Of a stretch of 64,000 nt of DNA, positions 3,525 to 15,423 are shown one piece after another (position 1 is the stretch's first letter; every line of letters begins with the position of its first letter). The stretch lies in contig DAOUJO010000013.1 of the NCBI GenBank assembly GCA_034422595.1, forward strand, positions 89,723-153,722. The letters are read 5' to 3'. The notes below the pieces were generated by a model. The model was not told the DNA's origin. It did no database searches and saw only the letters and a list, made by a program, of their open reading frames with translations. Both the position numbers and the translations under genes were made by a program. The stretch is from Dehalococcoidia bacterium. Its GTDB lineage: Bacteria; Chloroflexota; Dehalococcoidia; Lucifugimonadales; Australimonadaceae.

Positions 3525-4206
3525 CGTCAGACTTGCCCCCTCCATCCTCTCGGCGGACTTCGCCCGCATCGGCGAGGTCGTCCGCGAGACCGAGGAGGCG
3601 GGCGCCGACTACATCCACGTCGACGTGATGGACGGGCGCTTCGTCCCGAACCTCACCATCGGCCCGCTCGTCGTCGAGGCGATACGCCCGCACACGACCC
3701 TCCCGCTCGACGTACACCTGATGATCGTCGAGCCGGAGCGCCTCATCCCGGACTTCGTCGCAGCGGGCGCCGACAAGATAACCGTGCACCAGGAGGCCGT
3801 GACGCACCTCGACCGCGCCGTCCACCAGATACGCGACCTCGGCGCGACCGCCGGCGTCTCGCTCAACCCGTCGACGCCCGACGCCACGCTCACCGAGATA
3901 CTGCCGGAGCTGGACCTCGTGCTCGTCATGTCGGTCAACCCCGGCTTCGGCGGGCAGTCGTTCATCCCGGGCGTGCTTCCGAAGGTGAAGCGCCTCCGCG
4001 CCGCGATAGACGAGCGCGGCCTCGCCACCGAGCTGGAGGTCGACGGCGGCATCAAGCCGGACAACGTGGCGCGGGTCGTCGCTGCGGGTGCGAACGTCAT
4101 CGTGGCGGGCTCCGCTGTGTACAATGACCGCATGACCGTTGCCGAAGCAGTCGCTGCCATGCGTGCCGCCGTCGAAGGTGGCGCAGGATCGGGCGTGCCC
4201 GATTAA
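3517..4206 (+). CDS. rpe: Ribulose-phosphate 3-epimerase
   Basis: APSILSADF, HVDVMDGRFVPN, DVHLMI, MSVNPGFGGQ, EVDGG motifs. Confidence 0.97.
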   Translation: MADVRLAPSILSADFARIGEVVRETEEAGADYIHVDVMDGRFVPNLTIGPLVVEAIRPHTTLPLDVHLMIVEPERLIPDFVAAGADKITVHQEAVTHLDRAVHQIRDLGATAGVSLNPSTPDATLTEILPELDLVLVMSVNPGFGGQSFIPGVLPKVKRLRAAIDERGLATELEVDGGIKPDNVARVVAAGANVIVAGSAVYNDRMTVAEAVAAMRAAVEGGAGSGVPD

Positions 4207-4774
4207 CCCCCGCATCGCCCACGTCCTCTGCCCCGGCCTCTCCGGCGCCGTCCTCCTCATCGTCGCGCTGTCGCTCGCTGTCGCCTGCGCGTCCCCAACC
4301 CCAACTCCCACGCCTGTCCCCGTCGCCGAGGTAGGCGACCGTGCCATGGTGCACTATACCGGCGCCCTCGACGACGGCACCGAGTTCGACTCCTCGCGCG
4401 ACGGCTTCCCGCTCGACTTCGTCGTCGGCAGCGGCCAGCTCATCGACGGCTTCGACAGCGCCGTGCGCGGTCTCGCTGTCGGCGCCAGCGTCACCGTGCG
4501 CCTGGAACCCGCCGAGGCCTACGGCGAGCCTAACCCCGAACTCATCGCCAACGTGCCGATCGAGGAGTTCCCGCCGGAGATGGTGGGCCAGTTGGCCATC
4601 GGCATGGCCATCCCGCTCTCCAACGGGATATCGCCGGTGATCACCAACATCACTGACACCTTCATCACCCTCGACGCCAACCACCCGCTCGCCGGCGAGG
4701 CGCTCAACTTCGACATAGAGCTCGTCGACCTCATCAAACCCACCCCCGTCCCCGACACCACCCCCGTCGCCTGA
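4139..4774 (+). CDS. FKBP-type peptidyl-prolyl isomerase (SlyD/FkpB-like with insert-in-flap domain), predicted lipoprotein; true start uncertain
   Basis: VHYTGALDDGTEFDSS, FVVGSGQLIDGF, PAEAYGE, DANHPLAGEALNFDIE; preceded by hydrophobic stretch ending LAVAC and a PT linker. Confidence 0.88.
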   Translation: MPKQSLPCVPPSKVAQDRACPINPRIAHVLCPGLSGAVLLIVALSLAVACASPTPTPTPVPVAEVGDRAMVHYTGALDDGTEFDSSRDGFPLDFVVGSGQLIDGFDSAVRGLAVGASVTVRLEPAEAYGEPNPELIANVPIEEFPPEMVGQLAIGMAIPLSNGISPVITNITDTFITLDANHPLAGEALNFDIELVDLIKPTPVPDTTPVA

Positions 4775-4807
4775 CCCCGCGGGACAGTATCATTCTGGGC
4801 GATTATT

Positions 4808-4848
4808 GATACTAAGTATTGACAGTGTGCAAACGCAATCGCTACCTT
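4808..4848 (+). promoter_or_regulatory. Sigma70-type promoter with overlapping Fur-family-like 7-1-7 box upstream of the Fur/Zur gene
   Basis: GATACTAAGTATTGACAGTGTGCA at 4808-4831; TTGACA at 4819-4824; TACCTT at 4843-4848; ATG 7 nt later. Confidence 0.7.
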
Positions 4849-4855
4849 CCGAACC

Positions 4856-5359
4856 ATGGCGACGGCCTCGACGAAATCGGCCAGCGCGGTCATGCAGACC
4901 GAGTCCAACATCCTTGCGGCGTTGGAGGAACACGGCAGCCGCATGACCTGGCCGCGCCGTCAACTGGCGAAGATGCTCGCTCGGCGGACTGAGTCGTTCA
5001 GCGCCGAGGAGATCGTAGCCTCGCTGCCGACTCTGGGCCGGGCGACCGTCTACCGCACGCTGCGCCTGCTCGGGGAGGCGGGTGTCCTCTGCAAAGCCAC
5101 CATGCCGGACGGTTCGCCGCGCTACTCGCTGGATGACACAAGTCATCATCACCATCACCTCGTCTGTGTCGGCTGCGAACGCATCGACGAATTCCGCCAT
5201 CCTTCTATCGAACGGATGCTCCGTGCCATGAAGGCCTATATCGGGAGCGAGCTTGTCGGGCACAGGCTGGAGCTGTACCACCGCTGCACTGTCTGCCGGG
5301 AGACGGGCCAGGGCGGCGAAGACATCCACATGCACGGGACCCACGTGCACGCTCACTGA
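4856..5359 (+). CDS. zur: Fur-family transcriptional repressor, probably Zur
   Basis: GRATVYRTLRLL helix, HHHHHLVCVGC and HRCTVC (two CxxC), His-rich tail; adjacent to a Zn-binding protein gene. Zur versus other Fur-family members is inferred from context. Confidence 0.8.
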   Translation: MATASTKSASAVMQTESNILAALEEHGSRMTWPRRQLAKMLARRTESFSAEEIVASLPTLGRATVYRTLRLLGEAGVLCKATMPDGSPRYSLDDTSHHHHHLVCVGCERIDEFRHPSIERMLRAMKAYIGSELVGHRLELYHRCTVCRETGQGGEDIHMHGTHVHAH

Positions 5360-5424
5360 ACTCAACGGATGGCTATGCGAGACCGGCAAGACCTTTGGAG
5401 CAGGGATATCGTCTCGATGCTATC

Positions 5425-5464
5425 GATACCAAGTATTGACAGTGTGCAGATGCCCTGCTATCGT
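5425..5464 (+). promoter_or_regulatory. Second copy of the promoter/operator, upstream of the ZnuA-AztD gene
   Basis: GATACCAAGTATTGACAGTGTGCA at 5425-5448 (23/24 identical to 4808-4831); TTGACA 5436-5441, 17-bp spacer, TGnTATCGT ending 5464. Confidence 0.72.
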
Positions 5465-5593
5465 CGAGGCCGTGAAGGGATGGCGGGGCGTCGCCTGACG
5501 TAAGGGCGGCAGAGAACACCTGATTACCCACGGATATTCAAGACCCGCGTGCACTCGCAACTGGGTCCATTGGGTATAGCTATGGAGGCTTAC

Positions 5594-8005
5594 ATGTCGA
5601 GACTGCATCTCACTAGAATGCACAGGCTGTTTATCGCCGCAGCCCTGGCCCTGGCGATAGCGGTTACTGCCTGCTCGGATGACCCTGAGCCCACGAACAC
5701 GCCCGTCAGTGCTCCGCCCACGAACACACCGGTCGTTGCGTCCGAACCGCTGAGTGTGGTGGCGAGCATCTACCCGATGCAGTACTTCACCGAACGGATC
5801 GGCGGCGACCGGGTGGAAGTCGAGACCATCGTGCCCCCCGGCGTCGAGGCCCACCAGTTCGAACTCACGACGAGCGACCTGCTCGCGATCGCCGAGGCCG
5901 ATGTCGTGGTGATGAACGGCCTCAGTCTGTTGCCCTGGCTGCACCGTGCGCTCGAGTCCCTGGGCGATGACGTCTCCGGTATCGTGGTCGAGGCTGCGTA
6001 CGCCGAGGCGGCACTGCCGTTCGTGGAAGACGAGCACGGCCATGAGGACGAGCACGGCCACATGGAAGATGACGACCATGGGCATGAAGACGAGCATGGC
6101 CACGAGGAAGACGAGCACGGCCACATGGAAGGTGACGACCACGGCCACGAAGAACATGCCTTTGACGGGCGTCTGCTGATCGCAGACCTCGATGCGCAGC
6201 ACCTCTCGGTGCTCGATCTGTCGACAGAGGAACTGGACGTCGGCGCCTTCGACATTGGTGCGCCCCCCGCTGCGATCTACCCCAGCCCGACCCACCGCTA
6301 CGCCTTCGTGCTCGCTCGCGGCCCGGGAGACGCCGATGACGGCATCCACCTCTTCGACGGCGGCGTCTACCTCGTCGAGCACGGCGACCACTTCGACCTC
6401 GTACGTGAGCCCGTCTCGCGTCACCCCTCTGTGGTGACGGATGAACGGCCGATCCACTTCGTCAACAGCTACGGCTGGACGGCAGTGTTCGCTGACGCTC
6501 ACGGCCACGCCTACCTCTACAACGAGGAGGAGCTCACCGGCACGCAGGGCGACTACCAGCCGATCTTGTTCGAGACCGGCGACACGCAGCACGGCGCTGC
6601 CCTGGCGATCTCGCCCGACCGCTTCATTGTGACCACTGTAAACCCCGACTATCCCGAGAACACGGACAGCACCCTCCCGGTCGGCGTTGAAGTCCGCACC
6701 CTCGACGACGTAGTCATCTATGACGCCAGCAACAGCTCCTGCCCCGGCATGCACGGCGAGACCCACAATGAAGAGGGCGCCATCTTCGGCTGCGTCGGCG
6801 GCGTGCTCTTCCTGCACCCGGAGGGCGCCAGCTACCACCACGAATTCATCGACAATCCACCCGAGATGCGCGAGGAGTCACGCATCGGCTCCTTCTTCGG
6901 ACACCACCACCTGCACCACTTCTTCGGTCGTGCCTCCTACTTCGACGGTCAGGGCTTCGCCGACGACGGCATCTGGCTGATCGACCCCGAGTCCGGCGAG
7001 TTCCGGCAGGTCTTCTCTGAACCCATCGCCGCCGGCGCTGTCGGCACGCACGGTGAGCGCCTCTACCTGCTCACCTCCGATGGCGAACTCCACGTGTTCG
7101 ACGCCCACGATGGCGATGAGGTTGCGCACCTCCACGTCATGGAGCCGGGCGAGGAGGCGCGGCCCCGCCTCATCATCGTCGGCGAGACCATGTTCCTCAC
7201 GAACCCGAACCACGGCGAGATCATCTCGGTCGACCTCGACCACCTTGAGGTGGAGGAAGTCTGGGACGTCGGCGGTTCGCCCTCCGGCATCGCCTTCGTT
7301 GGCATCCTTGGTGAAGGGGAGGACCACGAGGACGAGCACGGCCACGAGGAAGATGAGCACGGCCACGATGAGGACGAACACGGCCATGAGGAGGGGGACG
7401 AGCACGGCCACGATGAGGATGAGCACGGCCATGAGGATGAGCACGGCCACATGGAAGGTGACGACCACGGCCACGGCGAATTTGATCCTCACTTCTGGCT
7501 CGACCCGCTGCGCGCCATCGGCCAGGCGGAGCGCATAGCCGAGGCGCTGATCGAGGCGGACCCCGAGGGCGCCGACATCTACCGGGCGAACCTCGCCACG
7601 CTCTCCTCCGATCTCCGGGGGCTGCACTCCGAGTTCGAGGCGGGCCTCAGCTCGTGCGTCCACCGCGAGTTCGTCACCTCGCACTCCGCTTACGGCTACC
7701 TCGCGGCAGCGTACGGCCTGGAACAGGTCGGGATCGCCGGCCTCTCCCCTGAAGCGGAGCCGTCTCCGCAGCGTCTCGCCGCCATCGCCGACCGCATCAA
7801 GGAGCTCGGCATCAAGGCTGTGCTGCTCGAGCCCGTGCTCTCCGGTGCGCACGAGCAGGCGCTCGCCAGCGAGACGGGGGCAGGCATCTACCAGATCCAC
7901 GCGATAGAGAGCGCCACCCAGGCTGAACTGGACGAGCACGGGGACTACTTCGGCCTGATGCGCGACAACCTGAAGAGCCTGCGCGCCGCGATGGAGTGCT
8001 CGTAA
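5594..8005 (+). CDS. Cluster A-I (ZnuA/AztC-like) zinc ABC solute-binding lipoprotein with a nested AztD-like beta-propeller between two His/Glu/Asp-rich tracts
   Basis: Lipobox AVTAC; N-half VVASIYP...EAHQFE; insert with RLLIAD, VEHGDH, PIHFV, LPVG, CPGMHG, TSDG, RPRL; C-half DPHFWLDP, VTSHSAYGY, EPSPQRL. GGAGG 5 nt before ATG 5594. Confidence 0.88.
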   Translation: MSRLHLTRMHRLFIAAALALAIAVTACSDDPEPTNTPVSAPPTNTPVVASEPLSVVASIYPMQYFTERIGGDRVEVETIVPPGVEAHQFELTTSDLLAIAEADVVVMNGLSLLPWLHRALESLGDDVSGIVVEAAYAEAALPFVEDEHGHEDEHGHMEDDDHGHEDEHGHEEDEHGHMEGDDHGHEEHAFDGRLLIADLDAQHLSVLDLSTEELDVGAFDIGAPPAAIYPSPTHRYAFVLARGPGDADDGIHLFDGGVYLVEHGDHFDLVREPVSRHPSVVTDERPIHFVNSYGWTAVFADAHGHAYLYNEEELTGTQGDYQPILFETGDTQHGAALAISPDRFIVTTVNPDYPENTDSTLPVGVEVRTLDDVVIYDASNSSCPGMHGETHNEEGAIFGCVGGVLFLHPEGASYHHEFIDNPPEMREESRIGSFFGHHHLHHFFGRASYFDGQGFADDGIWLIDPESGEFRQVFSEPIAAGAVGTHGERLYLLTSDGELHVFDAHDGDEVAHLHVMEPGEEARPRLIIVGETMFLTNPNHGEIISVDLDHLEVEEVWDVGGSPSGIAFVGILGEGEDHEDEHGHEEDEHGHDEDEHGHEEGDEHGHDEDEHGHEDEHGHMEGDDHGHGEFDPHFWLDPLRAIGQAERIAEALIEADPEGADIYRANLATLSSDLRGLHSEFEAGLSSCVHREFVTSHSAYGYLAAAYGLEQVGIAGLSPEAEPSPQRLAAIADRIKELGIKAVLLEPVLSGAHEQALASETGAGIYQIHAIESATQAELDEHGDYFGLMRDNLKSLRAAMECS
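6025..6156 (+). repeat. Coding His-rich tandem repeat tract 1 (EDEHGH-like units)
   Basis: Repeated GA(C/T)GAGCA(C/T)GGCCA(C/T) units within the SBP gene. Confidence 0.9.
7324..7475 (+). repeat. Coding His-rich tandem repeat tract 2
   Basis: Same unit; 37 nt at 7439-7475 identical to 6113-6149. Confidence 0.9.
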
Positions 8006-8022
8006 GCTGGACAGCGACGGCG

Positions 8023-8057
8023 ATACGGCGGCCGTATGCTGAATGCGGCCGCCGTAT
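8023..8057 (+). terminator. 12-bp stem hairpin after the SBP gene (possible terminator or stabiliser)
   Basis: ATACGGCGGCCG 8023-8034 pairs with CGGCCGCCGTAT 8046-8057; no U-tract. Confidence 0.5.
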
Positions 8058-8076
8058 GGGAACGGGGAGGTGTGCG

Positions 8077-8526
8077 ATGAAGTGGCACGGCGGACCGGAG
8101 CGCATCGACGCAGACCGGATGCCGGACTGCGGGGTATGCGACAAGAAGTGCGCGGACTGCAGGGAGCGGACGGCCAACGACGGCTCCGTGAAACCGCTCT
8201 ACCCGGAGTCACGCGGGTTCGAGTTGGATGAGCTGCTCAACTTCGCGACTATCGCGGCCAACGCGGCAGAGCACCAGCTCGATCCCGAGGAGGCGGACGC
8301 TGAGTTCAATGCAGTACTCGTCGACCTGGACGCGGACGATGCCAGCTTCCTCGTGGACCTGATGTTCTATCAACCAACCAGCCCCCTCTTGGGGGGTGCG
8401 CCGAAGTCCTCCCCGGCGCACCCCCCAGCCCCGGCCGGGCGGGTCGCTGAGCAACGCGATCCGATCGACCGGACTGAGTCTGATGAGGAGGGGAAGACTT
8501 ATGACGAGGCTTCAGACACAGCTTAG
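8077..8526 (+). CDS. Hypothetical acidic protein with N-terminal CxxCxxxCxxC
   Basis: GGAGG at 8066-8070 then ATG 8077; CGVCDKKCADC motif. The 3' part reads through a GC hairpin and may be incidental. Confidence 0.5.
   Translation: MKWHGGPERIDADRMPDCGVCDKKCADCRERTANDGSVKPLYPESRGFELDELLNFATIAANAAEHQLDPEEADAEFNAVLVDLDADDASFLVDLMFYQPTSPLLGGAPKSSPAHPPAPAGRVAEQRDPIDRTESDEEGKTYDEASDTA
8391..8426. repeat. GC-rich hairpin with CCTCCC loop, copy A
   Basis: GGGGGGTGCGCCG-AAGTCCTCCC-CGGCGCACCCCCC, perfect 13-bp stem. Confidence 0.85.
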
Positions 8527-8624
8527 ACACGAAGCATCTACCCGTAGGAAAACCACGGATGGTACCGCTATGATGGTGCTCGGAAGATGCTCTCGCTGGA
8601 GATCCAAATAGCAAGGAGGAAAGA

Positions 8625-8807
8625 ATGGTAGATCTGACGGCCTATTCGGTGAAGCTGAAGAAGATGGTGGCCATCAAGGACCCGGAGTTGGTGACCCTGA
8701 AGAACGGACGGAAAGCAGTCCGCGGTGTAGCGGCTGAGGATCCGTCCAGCAAGGTCATCAGGATAGTGAGTGACAAGCAGGCGGAAGAGATCGGGAACGC
8801 CCGGTGA
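8625..8807 (+). CDS. Small basic DUF5679-like protein lacking all four cysteines
   Basis: AYSVKLKKMVAIKDPELVTLKNGRKAVRGV...SKVIRI matches the remembered family pattern AYCxKC...xTLKNGR...GxCPxCGTKxxRI; AAGGAGG RBS. Confidence 0.72.
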   Translation: MVDLTAYSVKLKKMVAIKDPELVTLKNGRKAVRGVAAEDPSSKVIRIVSDKQAEEIGNAR

Positions 8808-8821
8808 CAGCCGCCTGCTTC

Positions 8822-8927
8822 CGAGTAGCGCCATCGGTAGCGTGAACTCGTCGGACGCCGGCTGGAGTTGCACTTCGGCCTGATGTGCGGCAACGTGAAC
8901 AGTCGGCGTCCCGCGATGGTGTGCTCG
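8822..8927 (+). ncRNA. Candidate structured RNA (long rod-like hairpin) in the 3' region of the DUF5679-like gene
   Basis: 8822-8836 pairs with 8914-8927; 8853-8863 pairs with 8901-8911; inner GTTGC/GCAAC stem; G-U pairs favour the + strand. Family not identified. Confidence 0.4.
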
Positions 8928-8951
8928 TAACTGAACTGGCCCCTCTTGCAA

Positions 8952-8987
8952 GGGGGGTGCGCCGGAGTCCTCCCGGGCGCACCCCCC
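8952..8987. repeat. GC-rich hairpin with CCTCCC loop, copy B
   Basis: GGGGGGTGCGCC-GGAGTCCTCCCG-GGCGCACCCCCC, 12-bp stem; flanks also resemble copy A. Confidence 0.85.
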
Positions 8988-9449
8988 TATCCTGCTTTGG
9001 GCGGCTCACTGAGTCGCACCGTCGGTCCCGCCTGCGCGGGAACATCCAGGTTGAATCCCTGACACGCGCCTGTTGCGCGCCCAACGCACTCCCTCCCTAC
9101 CATGTCTGCATGACTACCCATCCCTTCCCGCGCGTAACACTATGCAACAGGATGAGACACCCCACGCAGGCTCTGACTTTTGAAAACTATGCACACCTTG
9201 TTCGACGAACGCGGGAAGCAGGTCGTGGCCTGCCTGACGCCATCGCAAGGTGCTCAAGGTGCTCAGATCGGGCATGCGGTTCACTCGTAACCCGACCAAC
9301 AAGATGTGCAGATTCCAGCCCGCATTGAACACCTTGCTCACGCCCCGCCCCGAAAACCCGCGTAATCTCCCCATGAATACGCTTGACGCTGGACGCGCGG
9401 AACGCCAATCTAGCGTCTCATCATTTCAGGGTACGGAGGGAAGTGCCCC

Positions 9450-9851
9450 GTGGACACGGCGGAGCAGGTACTGCGCGAGAGCAAGGTCATCGCTGTCGTC
9501 GGCCTGTCGGACAGGCCGGACCGTCCGTCGCACGGGGTCGCGAGGTACATGCAGGAGCACGGCTACCGGATCATCCCGGTGAACCCGAAGCTCACGGGGC
9601 CGGTGCTCGGCGAGCAGCCGTACGCCAGGTTGGAGGACGTGCCGGAGCACGTCGACGTGGTGGACATATTCAGGAGATCGGTGGATGTGCCGCCCGTCGT
9701 GGACGGGGCCATCCGCATAGGAGCCTCCGCTGTGTGGATGCAACTGGGGATATCCCACGGCGAGGCCGGAGCAAGGGCGGAAGCCGCGGGCCTGCGCGTC
9801 GTCATGGACAAGTGCATGGCCATCGAGCACCGCCTGATGAGAGGTCCGTAA
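9450..9851 (+). CDS. CoA-binding domain protein (YccU-like)
   Basis: IAVVGLSDRPDRPSHGV, IPVNP, VDVVDIFR, VWMQLG, VVMDKC motifs. Confidence 0.92.
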   Translation: MDTAEQVLRESKVIAVVGLSDRPDRPSHGVARYMQEHGYRIIPVNPKLTGPVLGEQPYARLEDVPEHVDVVDIFRRSVDVPPVVDGAIRIGASAVWMQLGISHGEAGARAEAAGLRVVMDKCMAIEHRLMRGP

Positions 9852-9910
9852 GCAACAGAGAGACGCCGCCACAAGAGGGGGTGCGTGCGCCGGCGACGGG
9901 AGACGTCGTC

Positions 9911-10744
9911 ATGATCTACCGTGAAGAGGAGCATGTCCGGTTGTTGAAGGAGCAGTCCCGCACAGCAGTGCGCCTGGCGATGAACGGGGACTGGGCGGAG
10001 GCCGCCCGGCTCAACCGCGAGATACTGGAAGCCGCGCCCGATAACGTCGAGGCGATGAACCGCCTTGGCAAGGCGCTCACCGAGCTTGGCGAATTCGGCG
10101 CGGCGCTCGACGCCTTCCGCCGCGCGCTCGTGTTCAGCCCCGACAACCCCATCGCTATCAAGAACGTCGACCGGTTGATGGCCGAGGCCGAGAGCGTATC
10201 GGCCCGCCGATCCGGCAACGGCAACGGTGGCACGCTCAAGCCCCGGATGTTCATCGCGGACCACGGCAAGAGCGCCGACGTAACGCTGCTGGCCTCGACT
10301 GGCGCGGGCAACTCCTCGCCCGGCACGCCCGTGACGCTGGAAGCGAACGGCGCCACCCTCGGTGTCATGGACCCGGATGGCAACTGCCTCGGCCTCGTAC
10401 CCCCGAACATGGCGCGCCGCCTGCTCTGCCTCATGTCGGGCGGCAATCGCTACGAGGGCGCGGTCTCCGGCACGGCGTCCGGCGCGGTGCGCGTCGTGCT
10501 GCGCGAGGCATACCAGCACCCGAGCCAGCGCTCCAGGGTCTCGTTCCCCGCGCAGCCCAGGTCTGTCGAGGAGCCGCTCCTCCCGGCGCTCGACGTCCTC
10601 GATGCGCCTGACACGACGCCGGTCAACGTGCCGGAGGTGCCGCTGTCGCTCCTCGACGACTCGCCGGAACTCGCCGCCGTCGGCGCGGGCATCGGCATCT
10701 TCGACGACGCCCTCCTCCCCGACCTCCCCGAGGACGACGAGTAG
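9911..10744 (+). CDS. Tetratricopeptide-repeat protein with C-terminal beta domain
   Basis: TPR-like helices (PDNVEAMNRLGKALTELGEFGAALDAFRRAL); the ORF-track start at 9383 overlaps the upstream gene, so ATG 9911 is preferred. Confidence 0.75.
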   Translation: MIYREEEHVRLLKEQSRTAVRLAMNGDWAEAARLNREILEAAPDNVEAMNRLGKALTELGEFGAALDAFRRALVFSPDNPIAIKNVDRLMAEAESVSARRSGNGNGGTLKPRMFIADHGKSADVTLLASTGAGNSSPGTPVTLEANGATLGVMDPDGNCLGLVPPNMARRLLCLMSGGNRYEGAVSGTASGAVRVVLREAYQHPSQRSRVSFPAQPRSVEEPLLPALDVLDAPDTTPVNVPEVPLSLLDDSPELAAVGAGIGIFDDALLPDLPEDDE

Positions 10745-13207: not shown

Positions 13208-14212
13208 ATGGCTGAGATCGTGCTCGTCGAGGCCTGCTCCCACTCCCCCTTCCTCTTCATGGAGCCGCACCTGTGGAACCAAGTGCGGGCTGCCCGTCCA
13301 CCGCTGCCGGACAACCCGGTGATGTCCGAGGAGGAGAACGCCGCGCAGCACAGGCGCTGCATGGACGCATTCGAGGTGCTGCGCCAGAAGATGGAGGAGG
13401 CGAAACCCGATGTCATCCTCGTCTTCGGCGACGACCAGCAGGAGCTCTTCGGGCTCGACAACTTCCCTGCCTTCGGCATCTTCGTCGGTGACGAGTTCGA
13501 GGGCTACCGCACGAGCGCCCGGACAGGCTTCATCCCCGGCGAGCAGCGGGGCTGGCGCGAGAAGACGTCCGAGACGTGGGTGACGGTGCAGAGCAACCCG
13601 CAACTCGCCCAGGAGCTGGCGGTCGGGCTGACGCACCGCGATTTCGACATCTCGTTCAGCTTCGAGGTGCCGAACAAAGAGCACGGCATGGGGCATGCGT
13701 TCATGCGCCCCTTCACCCGCATCATCCCCGATTTCGACGTCCCGATGATCCCGTTCTTCGTGAACTGCTACTTCGGCCCGCAACCATCGGCCAACCGCTG
13801 CTACCGCCTGGGCAGGGCGGTGCGCGAGGTGATCGAGGCGTCGCCGCTGGACCTGCGCGTGGCCGTCCTCGGCTCGGGCGGGCTGTGGCACACGCCGGGC
13901 AGCCCCACCTCGTGGCTCAACACGGAGTTCGACGAGCGCCTCCTCTCTTACATCCCGAAGGGTGACGGCAAGGGGATGGCGGACGAGTTCGACAGGGAAG
14001 GCGCAACACCGCCCGCGGACTACGGCCCGAAGACGGCCCGCTGGGTCGATGGCGGCACCGGCATGTACACGGGCATCGGGAGCGGCACGGGCGAGTCGCG
14101 CAACTGGGTCGCTGCGGCGGGAGTCGCGGATGGCAAGCCGGGCGTCGTGATCGACTACGTGCCGGTCTTCGCGTCGCCGTGTGGCATGGGCTTCGCCTAC
14201 TGGGAGATGTAG
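13208..14212 (+). CDS. Class III extradiol dioxygenase (LigB superfamily, DesZ-like), copy 1
   Basis: MAEIVL..CSHSP, FGDDQQELF, PFFVNCY..PQPSANRCYRLG, GSGGLWH, GESRNW, GMGFAYW resemble 3-O-methylgallate dioxygenase DesZ. Confidence 0.8.
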   Translation: MAEIVLVEACSHSPFLFMEPHLWNQVRAARPPLPDNPVMSEEENAAQHRRCMDAFEVLRQKMEEAKPDVILVFGDDQQELFGLDNFPAFGIFVGDEFEGYRTSARTGFIPGEQRGWREKTSETWVTVQSNPQLAQELAVGLTHRDFDISFSFEVPNKEHGMGHAFMRPFTRIIPDFDVPMIPFFVNCYFGPQPSANRCYRLGRAVREVIEASPLDLRVAVLGSGGLWHTPGSPTSWLNTEFDERLLSYIPKGDGKGMADEFDREGATPPADYGPKTARWVDGGTGMYTGIGSGTGESRNWVAAAGVADGKPGVVIDYVPVFASPCGMGFAYWEM

Positions 14213-14219
14213 CGCGCCG

Positions 14220-14603
14220 CTACTGGTTCGGGGCCATCGTGCGTATGCCGTAGCGCCGGATGTAGGAGTCGCGTGTCACGAGGACCAGGCCCTCCGCCTG
14301 CGCCTGCGCGATCAGCATCCGGTCGAACGGGTCCCGATGGTGCATCGGCAGCATCGCCGCCTGCTCCGCGTGGAACAGCGTCAATGGAAGGGGCATAAAG
14401 CCGGCTTGTTCCACCACACTGGACAGGTTTTCCGGGGCATCCAGCAGGGCTTTGGCCCGCTTCAGCGCGAGTTCCCAGATGCTTGCAGCGCTTACGAAGA
14501 CCTCGTTGCCAGGGTCAGCGATAGCGACAGTGGCGCGCCCCCCAAGCAGGGGGCTCTGCCATAGGAACCAGAGCAGGACGTGCGAATCGAGCAGCAGTCT
14601 CAT
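14220..14603 (-). CDS. VapC-like PIN-domain toxin
   Basis: LLLDSHVLLW, VSAASIWE, HRDPFDRMLIAQA, LVTRD; 4-nt overlap with the antitoxin. Confidence 0.92.
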   Translation of the reverse strand: MRLLLDSHVLLWFLWQSPLLGGRATVAIADPGNEVFVSAASIWELALKRAKALLDAPENLSSVVEQAGFMPLPLTLFHAEQAAMLPMHHRDPFDRMLIAQAQAEGLVLVTRDSYIRRYGIRTMAPNQ

Positions 14604-14866
14604 TGAAAGAGGGGGTCCTCAGGGTCGTCGCTGTAGAACAGCTCTTCGATCTCCTCGTCTGTCCACTCGAGCAGGTCCCAGTTCGGCTCAGGCCAGCCCT
14701 GCTCTTTCAAGATGCCTGGTTTGCGGGGCTTGCGCTCCTTCTCCTTGTAGGGGAGCAGTTCTAGGTACGGCTTGCCGGCCTTGGCGATGACGACGCGTTC
14801 GCCCTGGCAGGCGAGTTCGCCGAGGCGCGAGAGTTGGGACTTCGCTTCGTGCATGTTGACCTGCAT
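14600..14866 (-). CDS. Phd/YefM-family antitoxin
   Basis: VNMHEAKSQLSRL...GERVVIAKAGKP, acidic tail. Confidence 0.9.
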   Translation of the reverse strand: MQVNMHEAKSQLSRLGELACQGERVVIAKAGKPYLELLPYKEKERKPRKPGILKEQGWPEPNWDLLEWTDEEIEELFYSDDPEDPLFQ

Positions 14867-14877
14867 GCCGAACGCTC

Positions 14878-14901
14878 CTTAGTCGGACTAAGCTTAGCTA
14901 A
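14878..14901. promoter_or_regulatory. Palindromic autoregulatory operator of the Phd-VapC pair
   Basis: CTTAGTC-G-GACTAAG (14878-14892) and TTAGCTAA (14894-14901) just upstream of the antitoxin start. Confidence 0.6.
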
Positions 14902-14943
14902 TCATCCCGACGGTCTGCTGTCAAGCGGGGAACCGGTTGGACC

Positions 14944-15423
14944 TTACCCCGTGCTGCCGTACTGCCCTTCGTGGAAGAGGAGCGCGCCGCCCTCCCTGAC
15001 CTCTACGTGCTCGACCGCTGCCACGAACAGCGTGTGGTCCCCCGCCTCAACGTGCTGCTCGATGTGGCAGACCATGCCCACGAGCGCCTCATCCAGTAGC
15101 GCGACGCCGCTCTCGTGCATCGTGTGCGCCTCGGGCAGCGTCCGGCGCTCCTCGGGTGCGGCGCGACCGTAGAAGTCCGCCACTTCGGCCTGATCGCCAC
15201 GGAGAAAGTTCACTCCGAAGCACCCCTCGCGGCGGAGGTAGTCGCATGTGTTCCCGCCCGTCGCGACGCTCAGCAGCAGCAGCGGCGGGTCGAGCGACAC
15301 GGAGAGGAGCGCGTTCGCGGTGGTGGCATACGGCGCGCCGTCCGGCGAGCGCGTGGTGACGACGCTCACGCCGGTGGGGAACCTGCGCCATGCCTGGCGG
15401 TAGAGGGTGGGGTCGGCTGTCAT
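14944..15423 (-). CDS. Flavin reductase-like (HpaC/DIM6-NTAB) protein
   Basis: RQAWRRFPTGVSVVT, SVSLDPPLL, AGDHTLFV; start taken at ATG 15423. Confidence 0.9.
   Translation of the reverse strand: MTADPTLYRQAWRRFPTGVSVVTTRSPDGAPYATTANALLSVSLDPPLLLLSVATGGNTCDYLRREGCFGVNFLRGDQAEVADFYGRAAPEERRTLPEAHTMHESGVALLDEALVGMVCHIEQHVEAGDHTLFVAAVEHVEVREGGALLFHEGQYGSTG

Follow-up and report, generated by a model that had tools for sequence, protein, structure and literature searches.

Within a 64,000-nucleotide stretch of a Dehalococcoidia bacterium genome (GenBank assembly GCA_034422595.1, contig DAOUJO010000013.1, positions 89,723 to 153,722; hereafter the window), one gene encodes a zinc solute-binding protein (SBP) in whose histidine-rich loop a whole domain resembling the metallochaperone AztD is nested. 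On balance, we favor the view that this protein is a membrane-anchored lipoprotein uniting an AztD-type chaperone with a three-His zinc SBP, zinc being relayed within the chain and then to a ZnuBC-type transporter. From the comparisons presented below we infer the intramolecular hand-off of zinc, the specificity for this metal and the regulation of the gene.

Gene and Protein Architecture

The gene occupies an uninterrupted open reading frame (ORF) on the + strand, running from a GTG codon at 5549 to position 8005, with an alternative start at ATG 5594. The latter is preferred because GGAGG is found at 5582-5586, and it is the likely start. The coding sequence and its parts are as follows (residue numbers refer to the product of 803 amino acids, aa):

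5594..8005, + strand: full coding sequence, an 803-aa lipoprotein composed of a split SBP, His tract 1, an AztD-like propeller and His tract 2
5594..5674, + strand: signal peptide and lipobox (…AIAVTAC), residues 1-27 of the translation
5741..6004, + strand: SBP N-lobe, residues ~50-137, with the first zinc ligand His87 (EAHQFE); predicted local distance difference test score (pLDDT) ~80-94
6020..6160, + strand: His/Asp/Glu tract 1, residues ~143-189, the N-terminal tether, predicted to be disordered
6161..7309, + strand: AztD-like beta-propeller, residues 190-572, supported by the NCBIfam AztD profile, PDB alignment and Foldseek
7310..7477, + strand: His/Asp/Glu tract 2, residues ~573-628, the C-terminal tether
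7478..8005, + strand: SBP C-lobe and stop codon, residues 629-803, with ligands His633 (DPHFW) and His697 (TSHSAY)

Pfam finds one family in this protein, ZnuA (PF01297), which matches in two separate stretches (expectation value, E, 2e-75; 254.1 bits against a cut-off of 29), and it has no model that detects the propeller. The NCBIfam models of AztC, AdcA and ZnuA-type SBPs also match in two stretches, with the AztD model between them. An earlier note, made from the DNA letters and the ORF translations, had described an 803-aa lipoprotein with an SBP split by a first His tract, a domain of roughly 385 aa and a second His tract. The ORF and both profile searches agree with this description, and the motifs quoted there are all present in the translation (EAHQFE, DPHFW, TSHSAY, RLLIAD, HGDH, PIHFV, PVG, CPGMHG...FGC, TSDG, RPRL and SPSGIAFVG). 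Invariance was counted in an alignment of 89 family sequences, which also underlies the paired lobe and propeller trees described below; the lipobox Cys27 is invariant throughout. An AlphaFold2 (AF2) model built from the same alignment (mean pLDDT 75.6; predicted template modeling score, pTM, 0.53) presents residues 3-27 as a helix, both lobes and the propeller with confidence, and pLDDT < 50 in the tethers (residues 138-186 and 574-627). The bilobed SBP, propeller and flexible linkers that the note expected of AlphaFold are thus recovered, with both lobes and the propeller folded and the tethers disordered.

The point of insertion follows from the alignment with YcdH, whose loop residues 111-121 align twice, once with residues 143-154 at the end of the first SBP stretch and once with residues 612-622 at the start of the second. 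The His-rich loop therefore houses the insert, immediately ahead of the second zinc ligand, at a position equivalent to the D-loop of AztC. Both comparisons bear out the proposal that chaperone and receptor form one polypeptide joined at the transfer loop. Tract 2 terminates in an invariant H625-x-H627-G motif immediately ahead of the second SBP ligand, with H625 and H627 both present in all 89 sequences. At the DNA level, tract 1 is a tandem repeat of the unit GA(A/G)GACGAGCACGGCCAC, and tract 2 a tandem repeat of the same unit, GAGGA(T/C)GAGCACGGCCAC. In effect, both tracts repeat essentially one 21-nt unit, GA(A/G)GA(C/T)GAGCACGGCCAC, and are direct repeats bracketing the propeller. Across the family both linkers are rich in His, Asp and Glu. 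The first has a median length of 40 residues (range 22-67 aa) and a median of 8 His; for the second the corresponding medians are 42 residues and 11 His.

The Zinc SBP Scaffold

Among PDB sequences the lobes match AdcA, YcdH, ZnuA and AztC, with AdcA as the best. A bilobed SBP fold is apparent in the AF2 model, with confident lobes and a long helix (638-685), and the Foldseek SBP matches include Lmb, Lbp, YcdH, AdcA, ZnuA and AztC. The three ligand positions H87, H633 and H697 are invariant and form the zinc-type three-His set; manganese and iron SBPs of cluster A-I use two His, a Glu and an Asp. At position 772, occupied by Glu, E or D occurs only within the window's clade (12 of the 89 sequences), and this residue aligns with the region of the Glu ligand of AdcA-type SBPs. 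The curated models give scores below their cut-offs, with 169 bits against 350 for the AztC equivalog (NCBIfam NF040870) and 153 bits against 700 for AdcA (NF033605), and a Pfam search of the protein found no ZinT domain. Profile searches assign the protein to the cluster A-I SBPs by Pfam, and the curated models place it outside both AztC and AdcA.

An AztD-Like Propeller with Conserved AztD Ligands

The NCBIfam AztD model (NF038015) covers residues 198-569 and profile positions 3-354 of 356 (E 1e-37), and the insert alone matches the PDB AztD entries 6CMK (E 7e-21) and 6CK1 (E 2e-15) with phmmer. In a Foldseek search of the PDB, the nine best matches are AztD structures (target template modeling score, TM, 0.77-0.81; E 3e-25 to 2e-21), headed by 6N01, 6CMK and 6CK1 and followed by zinc SBPs. 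A propeller fold like that of the eight-bladed 6CK1 and 6CMK is supported by these TM values. Generic propellers of the PQQ, WD40 or cd1 type were considered and rejected, as their matches trail those to AztD by 11 orders of magnitude or more and the AztD ligands are kept.

Ligand correspondence was established with the phmmer alignment to Paracoccus denitrificans AztD (PdAztD) and the published ligand list (PMC6689063). Site 1 of PdAztD (His124, His167 and His218) corresponds to H288, H333 and H387, which are invariant. Site 2 (His99, Gly100, His102 and Asp104) corresponds to H263-G264-D265-H266-F-D268, where H263, D265, H266 and D268 are invariant and Gly264 is found in 70 of the 89 sequences. 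The disulfide cysteines Cys214 and Cys231 of AztD are C383 and C400, again without exception. Of the AztD zinc ligands, the propeller thus has all those of site 1 and three of the four belonging to site 2, along with both disulfide cysteines. In line with the AztD-like insert proposed in the earlier note, it scores as an AztD, folds as one and retains these residues. The site 2 hairpin (residues 257-270; 6362-6403) is the sole low-confidence stretch within the propeller model (pLDDT < 50), and the same hairpin is disordered in apo Citrobacter koseri AztD (PMC6689063).

Family Distribution and Variants

The nested order is present in all 120 of the best database homologues (703-1376 aa), and a scan of one genome per species located 260 stretches encoding relatives, so the architecture does recur in relatives, where the note had proposed to look for it. 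The best 80 of these 260 belong nearly all to Dehalococcoidia (including SAR202), Caldilineaceae and other Chloroflexota. A second and far more divergent nested lineage, whose loci were located with the single protein P0161 as query, has propellers approximately 31-35% identical to that of the window and occurs in Caldilinea, Anaerolineae and Aggregatilineales. Judging from isolate names at loci L003-L082 (APA_bin, RHO, IRC, COS, SB06xx, PNGco, Spongiisociaceae), the carriers are presumably, for the most part, sponge-associated Chloroflexota. Source names read merely "zinc ABC transporter substrate-binding protein", "ZnuA" or "hypothetical". With such generic names, an AztD score below the cut-off and no paper on the fusion found in the literature searched, the supposition that this is not a well-catalogued family stands: the architecture is abundant in databases yet uncatalogued as such. 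What goes beyond the earlier note is the size of the family, the existence of two-propeller versions, the exchange and loss of the propeller, and the lack of transporter genes near the window copy.

The order N-lobe, propeller, C-lobe is found in 113 of the 120 homologues. In the other seven the loop holds a tandem pair of propellers, and three of these proteins are truncated at one end:

Two-propeller variants, 1216-1376 aa: P0012, P0014, P0020 and P0021; truncated P0013, P0015 and P0016; locus L034, 8388-10793

In a rough tree, the two propellers of P0020 are near-identical, pointing to a recent tandem duplication. Several members, namely P0028, P0066, P0014 and others (916-987 aa), have between lipobox and N-lobe an extra Ala/Gln/Ser-rich repetitive segment of about 200 residues (…SAAEIQ..V..AIAAQP…; residues ~30-240), which resembles a stalk or spacer. 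The closest reference genome (locus L003, 86% identity) has tandem nested SBP genes (5684-7816 and 8142-10343) downstream of one Fur-family gene. Additional AztD-like fusions were also seen, composed of ZinT and AztD (P0200, 626 aa), AztD and ZinT (P0236, 1077 aa), and FG-GAP/ASPIC and an AztD-like propeller (P0146, 1030 aa). AztD-type propellers therefore combine with several other modules.

Propeller Exchange, Loss or Gain

Bootstrapped neighbor-joining trees were calculated for the lobes and for the propeller separately, with the same 89 sequences. Compared with the bulk of the family, the window protein shows 30-42% identity in its lobes (clade-to-clade means of 37% for the N-lobe and 33% for the C-lobe) and 59-73% in its propeller. 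Bulk family lobes are most like PsaA, MntA, YfeA and AztC; those of the window are most like AdcA and YcdH. Some members combine parts of different affinity. P0017 and P0018 have window-type lobes (73-84%) but a distant propeller (51%), while P0022 has a close propeller (73%) within foreign lobes. The branching patterns of the two trees are accordingly in conflict:

Window group with P0017 and P0018: 100% in the lobe tree, 0% in the propeller tree
Window group with P0022: 0% in the lobe tree, 100% in the propeller tree

On this evidence, SBP scaffolds have exchanged propellers. SBPs that carry the loop and no propeller (loop-only) provide additional clues, as they group among the nested ones in the lobe trees. 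A 433-aa loop-only paralogue at the related locus L001 falls within the window's clade (100%), together with P0018 and P0009 (97%); with P0018 it shares 92% identity over the lobes. Another loop-only protein, L133, is inside the second nested lineage (99%). Compared with those of nested proteins, the lobes of the L001 paralogue are 77-92% identical. The propeller was therefore recently lost, or gained, more than once, and the tree conflict and the position of the loop-only SBPs together indicate that it behaves as a swappable cassette.

Recombination between the flanking repeats would excise or exchange such a cassette and leave a long His-rich loop like that of the loop-only paralogues. It may well be, though we stop short of calling it probable, that the propeller and its His flanks form a recombination-competent cassette that has been inserted, swapped and excised in the metal-loop of at least two SBP scaffolds (AdcA/ZnuA-like and PsaA/AztC-like), giving receptors with zero, one or two propellers. 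The direct repeats of ~21 nt may be the substrate. In this scenario, the fusion would create an intramolecular relay and offer "Rosetta-stone" evidence for loop-mediated transfer from AztD to AztC.

Genomic Context and Regulation

Operon context was read from the loci of homologues, with 82 related loci underlying the counts. A Fur-family gene adjoins the nested SBP in 45 of the 82, and genes for an ATP-binding cassette (ABC) ATPase and an ABC-3 permease are directly downstream of it in about 37. Given this linkage to Fur and transporter genes, the nested SBP is, in the family overall, the operon's own SBP. The gene order in the window's clade is Fur gene, nested SBP and two small conserved ORFs, and no transporter genes adjoin the nested gene in L003-L017 and L021. 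In L001 the transporter genes are 3.6 kb further on, beside the 433-aa loop-only paralogue (13999-15300), which lies between FUR and ABC_tran/ABC-3. This paralogue has the same lobes, a His/Asp/Glu loop of ~105 residues and no propeller; its precomputed Pfam field is blank, yet the protein is plainly an SBP of the ZnuA type. Within the window we found no second SBP and no stand-alone AztD. The features surrounding the window gene are the following:

4808..4831, + strand: operator-like element, copy 1, GATACTAAGTATTGACAGTGTGCA, upstream of the Fur-family gene
4856..5359, + strand: Fur-family metalloregulator, 167 aa, with an HHHHH run and two CxxC pairs; Pfam FUR, E 3e-25
5425..5448, + strand: operator-like element, copy 2, GATACCAAGTATTGACAGTGTGCA, upstream of the SBP gene
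5436..5464, + strand: sigma-70-like promoter, TTGACA, 17 nt, TG-TATCGT, with 10/12 matches; overlaps the operator-like element
8077..8526, + strand: downstream ORF, 149 aa, 65% identical to a 118-aa neighbor in L001 (tblastn); in 12 of the 82 loci
8622..8804, + strand: 60-aa ORF (MVDLTAYSVKLKKMV…), 93% identical to a 62-aa ORF of L001; in 13 of the 82 loci

The 24-nt element GATAC(T/C)AAGTATTGACAGTGTGCA occurs in two copies in the window, versus 0 expected from 100 shuffles. The pattern GATAC-N3-GTATTGACA is conserved in about 15 related loci (L001, L003-L017 and L021), mostly upstream of the nested SBP gene, and in L001 it is also present upstream of the Fur gene heading the transporter operon. 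Copy 1 contains the palindrome ATACT-A-AGTAT beside a TTGACA hexamer. This 5-1-5 palindrome was spotted by eye and then tested as a pattern; an inverted-repeat search over the promoter region, set to a minimum length of 12, returned none. Promoter-like sites in the region number two versus 0.5 expected, with none on the + strand at the element copy at 4808..4831, and no intrinsic terminator was found downstream of the SBP gene. Context alone suggests that the regulator is Zur-like.

In the window's clade, the nested SBP is invariably followed by both small ORFs. The 149-aa ORF has no Pfam match, and the 60-aa ORF, which is tandemly duplicated in L001, L014, L017 and L021, has a weak match to DUF5679 (E 0.005, below the cut-off). 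A gene for an FKBP-type peptidyl-prolyl isomerase with a lipoprotein-like N-terminus (4139-4774) is located directly upstream of the Fur-family gene. Additionally, G+C content dips to 0.60-0.65 at 4500-9500, versus ~0.70 on either side, a segment that includes the Fur and SBP genes along with both small ORFs.

A Proposed Intramolecular Zinc Relay and Its Alternatives

In AztABCD systems, zinc reaches AztC from site 2 of AztD only, a site formed by the N- and C-terminal strands and the blade-2 hairpin (PMC6689063; PMC7463823; PMC9175090). Complex formation between AztD and AztC is rate-limiting, and a flexible D-loop of AztC (117-133, just ahead of ligand His138) and the histidines in it are indispensable for transfer (PMC6689063; PMC7463823; PMC9175090). 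In the window protein, flexible His-rich tethers join the propeller termini to the D-loop-equivalent position, a few residues from His633, and the adjacent N- and C-termini of the propeller make the insertion sterically easy. Site 2 would lie at the exit points of the tethers, because it is built from the propeller's own terminal strands.

With these elements we put forward the following sequence of events. Under zinc shortage, a Zur-like repressor would leave the GATAC-N3-GTAT operator overlapping the -35 hexamer, and the gene would be expressed. Several zinc ions could then be captured by pore site 1, terminal site 2 and the ~100 residues of His-rich tether. Zinc from site 2 would be passed within the same molecule to His87/His633/His697, probably via the invariant HxHG motif, with the SBP site acting as a kinetic trap, as in AztC. 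The loaded SBP would dock on an ABC-3 permease and ATPase of the ZnuBC type. For the window's clade, the genes of this transporter would be elsewhere in the genome, in one relative beside the loop-only paralogue. Tethering would in this way swap a slow, rate-limiting bimolecular encounter of AztD and AztC for an intramolecular step.

Several observations weigh against such a relay. The AztD model scores 129.7 bits, far under the NCBIfam cut-off of 400, and the propeller is therefore a distant AztD relative, 20-24% identical to the solved AztDs in the Foldseek comparison. The insert has the structure of an AztD and most of its ligands, and falls below the cut-off of the AztD hidden Markov model. 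The orientation of the propeller relative to the SBP is not predicted by AF2 (pTM 0.53). None of the NCBIfam Fur, PerR and Zur models assigns the regulator to a type, all of them scoring below their cut-offs; the Zur model yields 28 bits against a cut-off of 167, and Fur and PerR models match best. Genes for an ABC ATPase or an ABC-3 permease are absent from the 64-kb window, which makes delivery to a transporter conjectural for the window copy. The fourth site 2 ligand, the C-terminal His408, has no assignable counterpart, the propeller having no free C-terminus and its last strand being followed by a His-rich tract. In AztDs this C-terminal His ligand is conserved in just 68% (PMC6689063).

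Alternatively, the propeller might be mainly a zinc store, buffer or affinity tuner, with the SBP loaded by ordinary dissociation and rebinding and the fusion merely raising local zinc and capacity. Site 1 is invariant and in AztD transfers no zinc, a storage or tuning role having been suggested by the authors (PMC6689063); moreover, the long, acidic, His-rich tethers should be low-affinity, high-capacity binders of zinc, and the two-propeller variants look like additional capacity. However, the transfer-competent site 2 motif is equally invariant and sits at the tether junctions, and the insertion took place at the very loop that AztC needs for transfer rather than at an easier terminus, as with ZinT in AdcA. 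We thus regard pure storage as unlikely, although it is the likeliest of the alternatives. Less probable still is that the nested protein of the window's clade is an orphan, acting as a surface zinc reservoir or chaperone for the loop-only paralogue, or in another surface role such as adhesion, like Lmb/Lbp-type SBPs. By similarity, the lobes of the window protein fall nearest to the group of AdcA, YcdH and Lmb, the transporter genes are lacking from the window and from the immediate surroundings of the gene in L003-L017 and L021, and in L001 it is the loop-only paralogue that is flanked by the Fur, ATPase and permease genes. Nevertheless, the SBP fold and its three zinc ligands are fully conserved in the window's clade, SBP genes remote from permease genes are common, and the lobe identity between the loop-only paralogue and nested proteins is such that both could dock on the same permease.

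The metal in question might also be other than zinc (Mn, Fe, Ni or Co), with a regulator of the Fur, Mur or Nur type rather than Zur. The sub-threshold matches of the regulator to Fur and PerR, the similarity of the main family lobes to PsaA, MntA and YfeA, and the ability of His-rich tracts to bind Ni and Co as well are in line with this scenario. It is, however, very improbable, given His at all three ligand positions in 89 of 89 members, the zinc-type set, and given that AztD is a zinc protein whose site 1 and three of four site 2 ligands the propeller keeps. Finally, an assembly chimera or a fused pseudogene is effectively refuted. Both junctions are low-complexity DNA repeats prone to misjoining, but the frame is intact, the ligands of both domains are invariant, and the nested order of the 120 homologues is found in many cases on contigs of 1-5.9 Mb or on complete chromosomes. 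With hundreds of independent sequences, many on Mb-scale contigs, the possibility of a chimera that the earlier note had raised can be set aside.

Comparison with Known Systems

No AztD-SBP fusion was found in the AztD structural papers, a zincophore review or full-text searches, a coverage outside which the 2015 AztD discovery paper falls; the review's table has AztD as a separate periplasmic protein. The closest known counterparts are AztD and AztC of the AztABCD systems of Paracoccus denitrificans and Citrobacter koseri (PDB 6CK1, 6CMK, 5W56/5W57), which are the same two kinds of protein. Like AztD, the insert combines a propeller fold with site 1, the disulfide and all but one of the site 2 ligands; like AztC, the receptor is a three-His cluster A-I SBP with a flexible His-containing loop just ahead of the second ligand; and, as for AztABCD, the genes are linked to a Fur-family regulator. 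In contrast, here a single polypeptide holds both, the chaperone being nested in the receptor's loop. Furthermore, the window lobes are AdcA/YcdH-like rather than AztC-like, the tethers comprise ~45-55 His/Asp/Glu residues each versus the 17-residue D-loop of AztC, and the hosts are Chloroflexota instead of Proteobacteria.

Streptococcal AdcA (ZnuA-like with a C-terminal ZinT; PDB 7JJ9) is a precedent for a zinc SBP covalently joined to an accessory zinc-recruitment module, although in AdcA the fusion is end-to-end and the module a lipocalin-like ZinT, as opposed to a beta-propeller inserted into the middle of the SBP. The ZnuA proteins of E. coli and Synechocystis and YcdH of B. subtilis share the loop position, its His/acidic composition and the three-His site, but their long His-rich loops hold no folded domain; in the loop-only relatives of the nested proteins these loops reach ~105-150 residues. 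A fusion of chaperone and receptor is thus already known in kind from AdcA, and it is the nested topology that is unusual and mechanistically telling.

The family also exposes a gap in annotation, as hundreds of entries named "zinc ABC transporter substrate-binding protein" hide an unannotated metallochaperone domain of 385 residues. Its abundance in marine, apparently sponge-associated Chloroflexota suggests strong competition for zinc there. In evolutionary terms, it would be a clean case of repeats making a disordered, low-complexity loop a docking port, with insertion followed by swapping, duplication and loss. With a single chain, in addition, the hand-off would become accessible to measurement as a first-order reaction and might be trapped structurally. 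The evidence for direct transfer from AztD to AztC comes from mutagenesis and one docking model; a fusion found in nature, in which the transfer site of the chaperone is set at the transfer loop of the receptor, would lend independent evolutionary support to that model of transfer.

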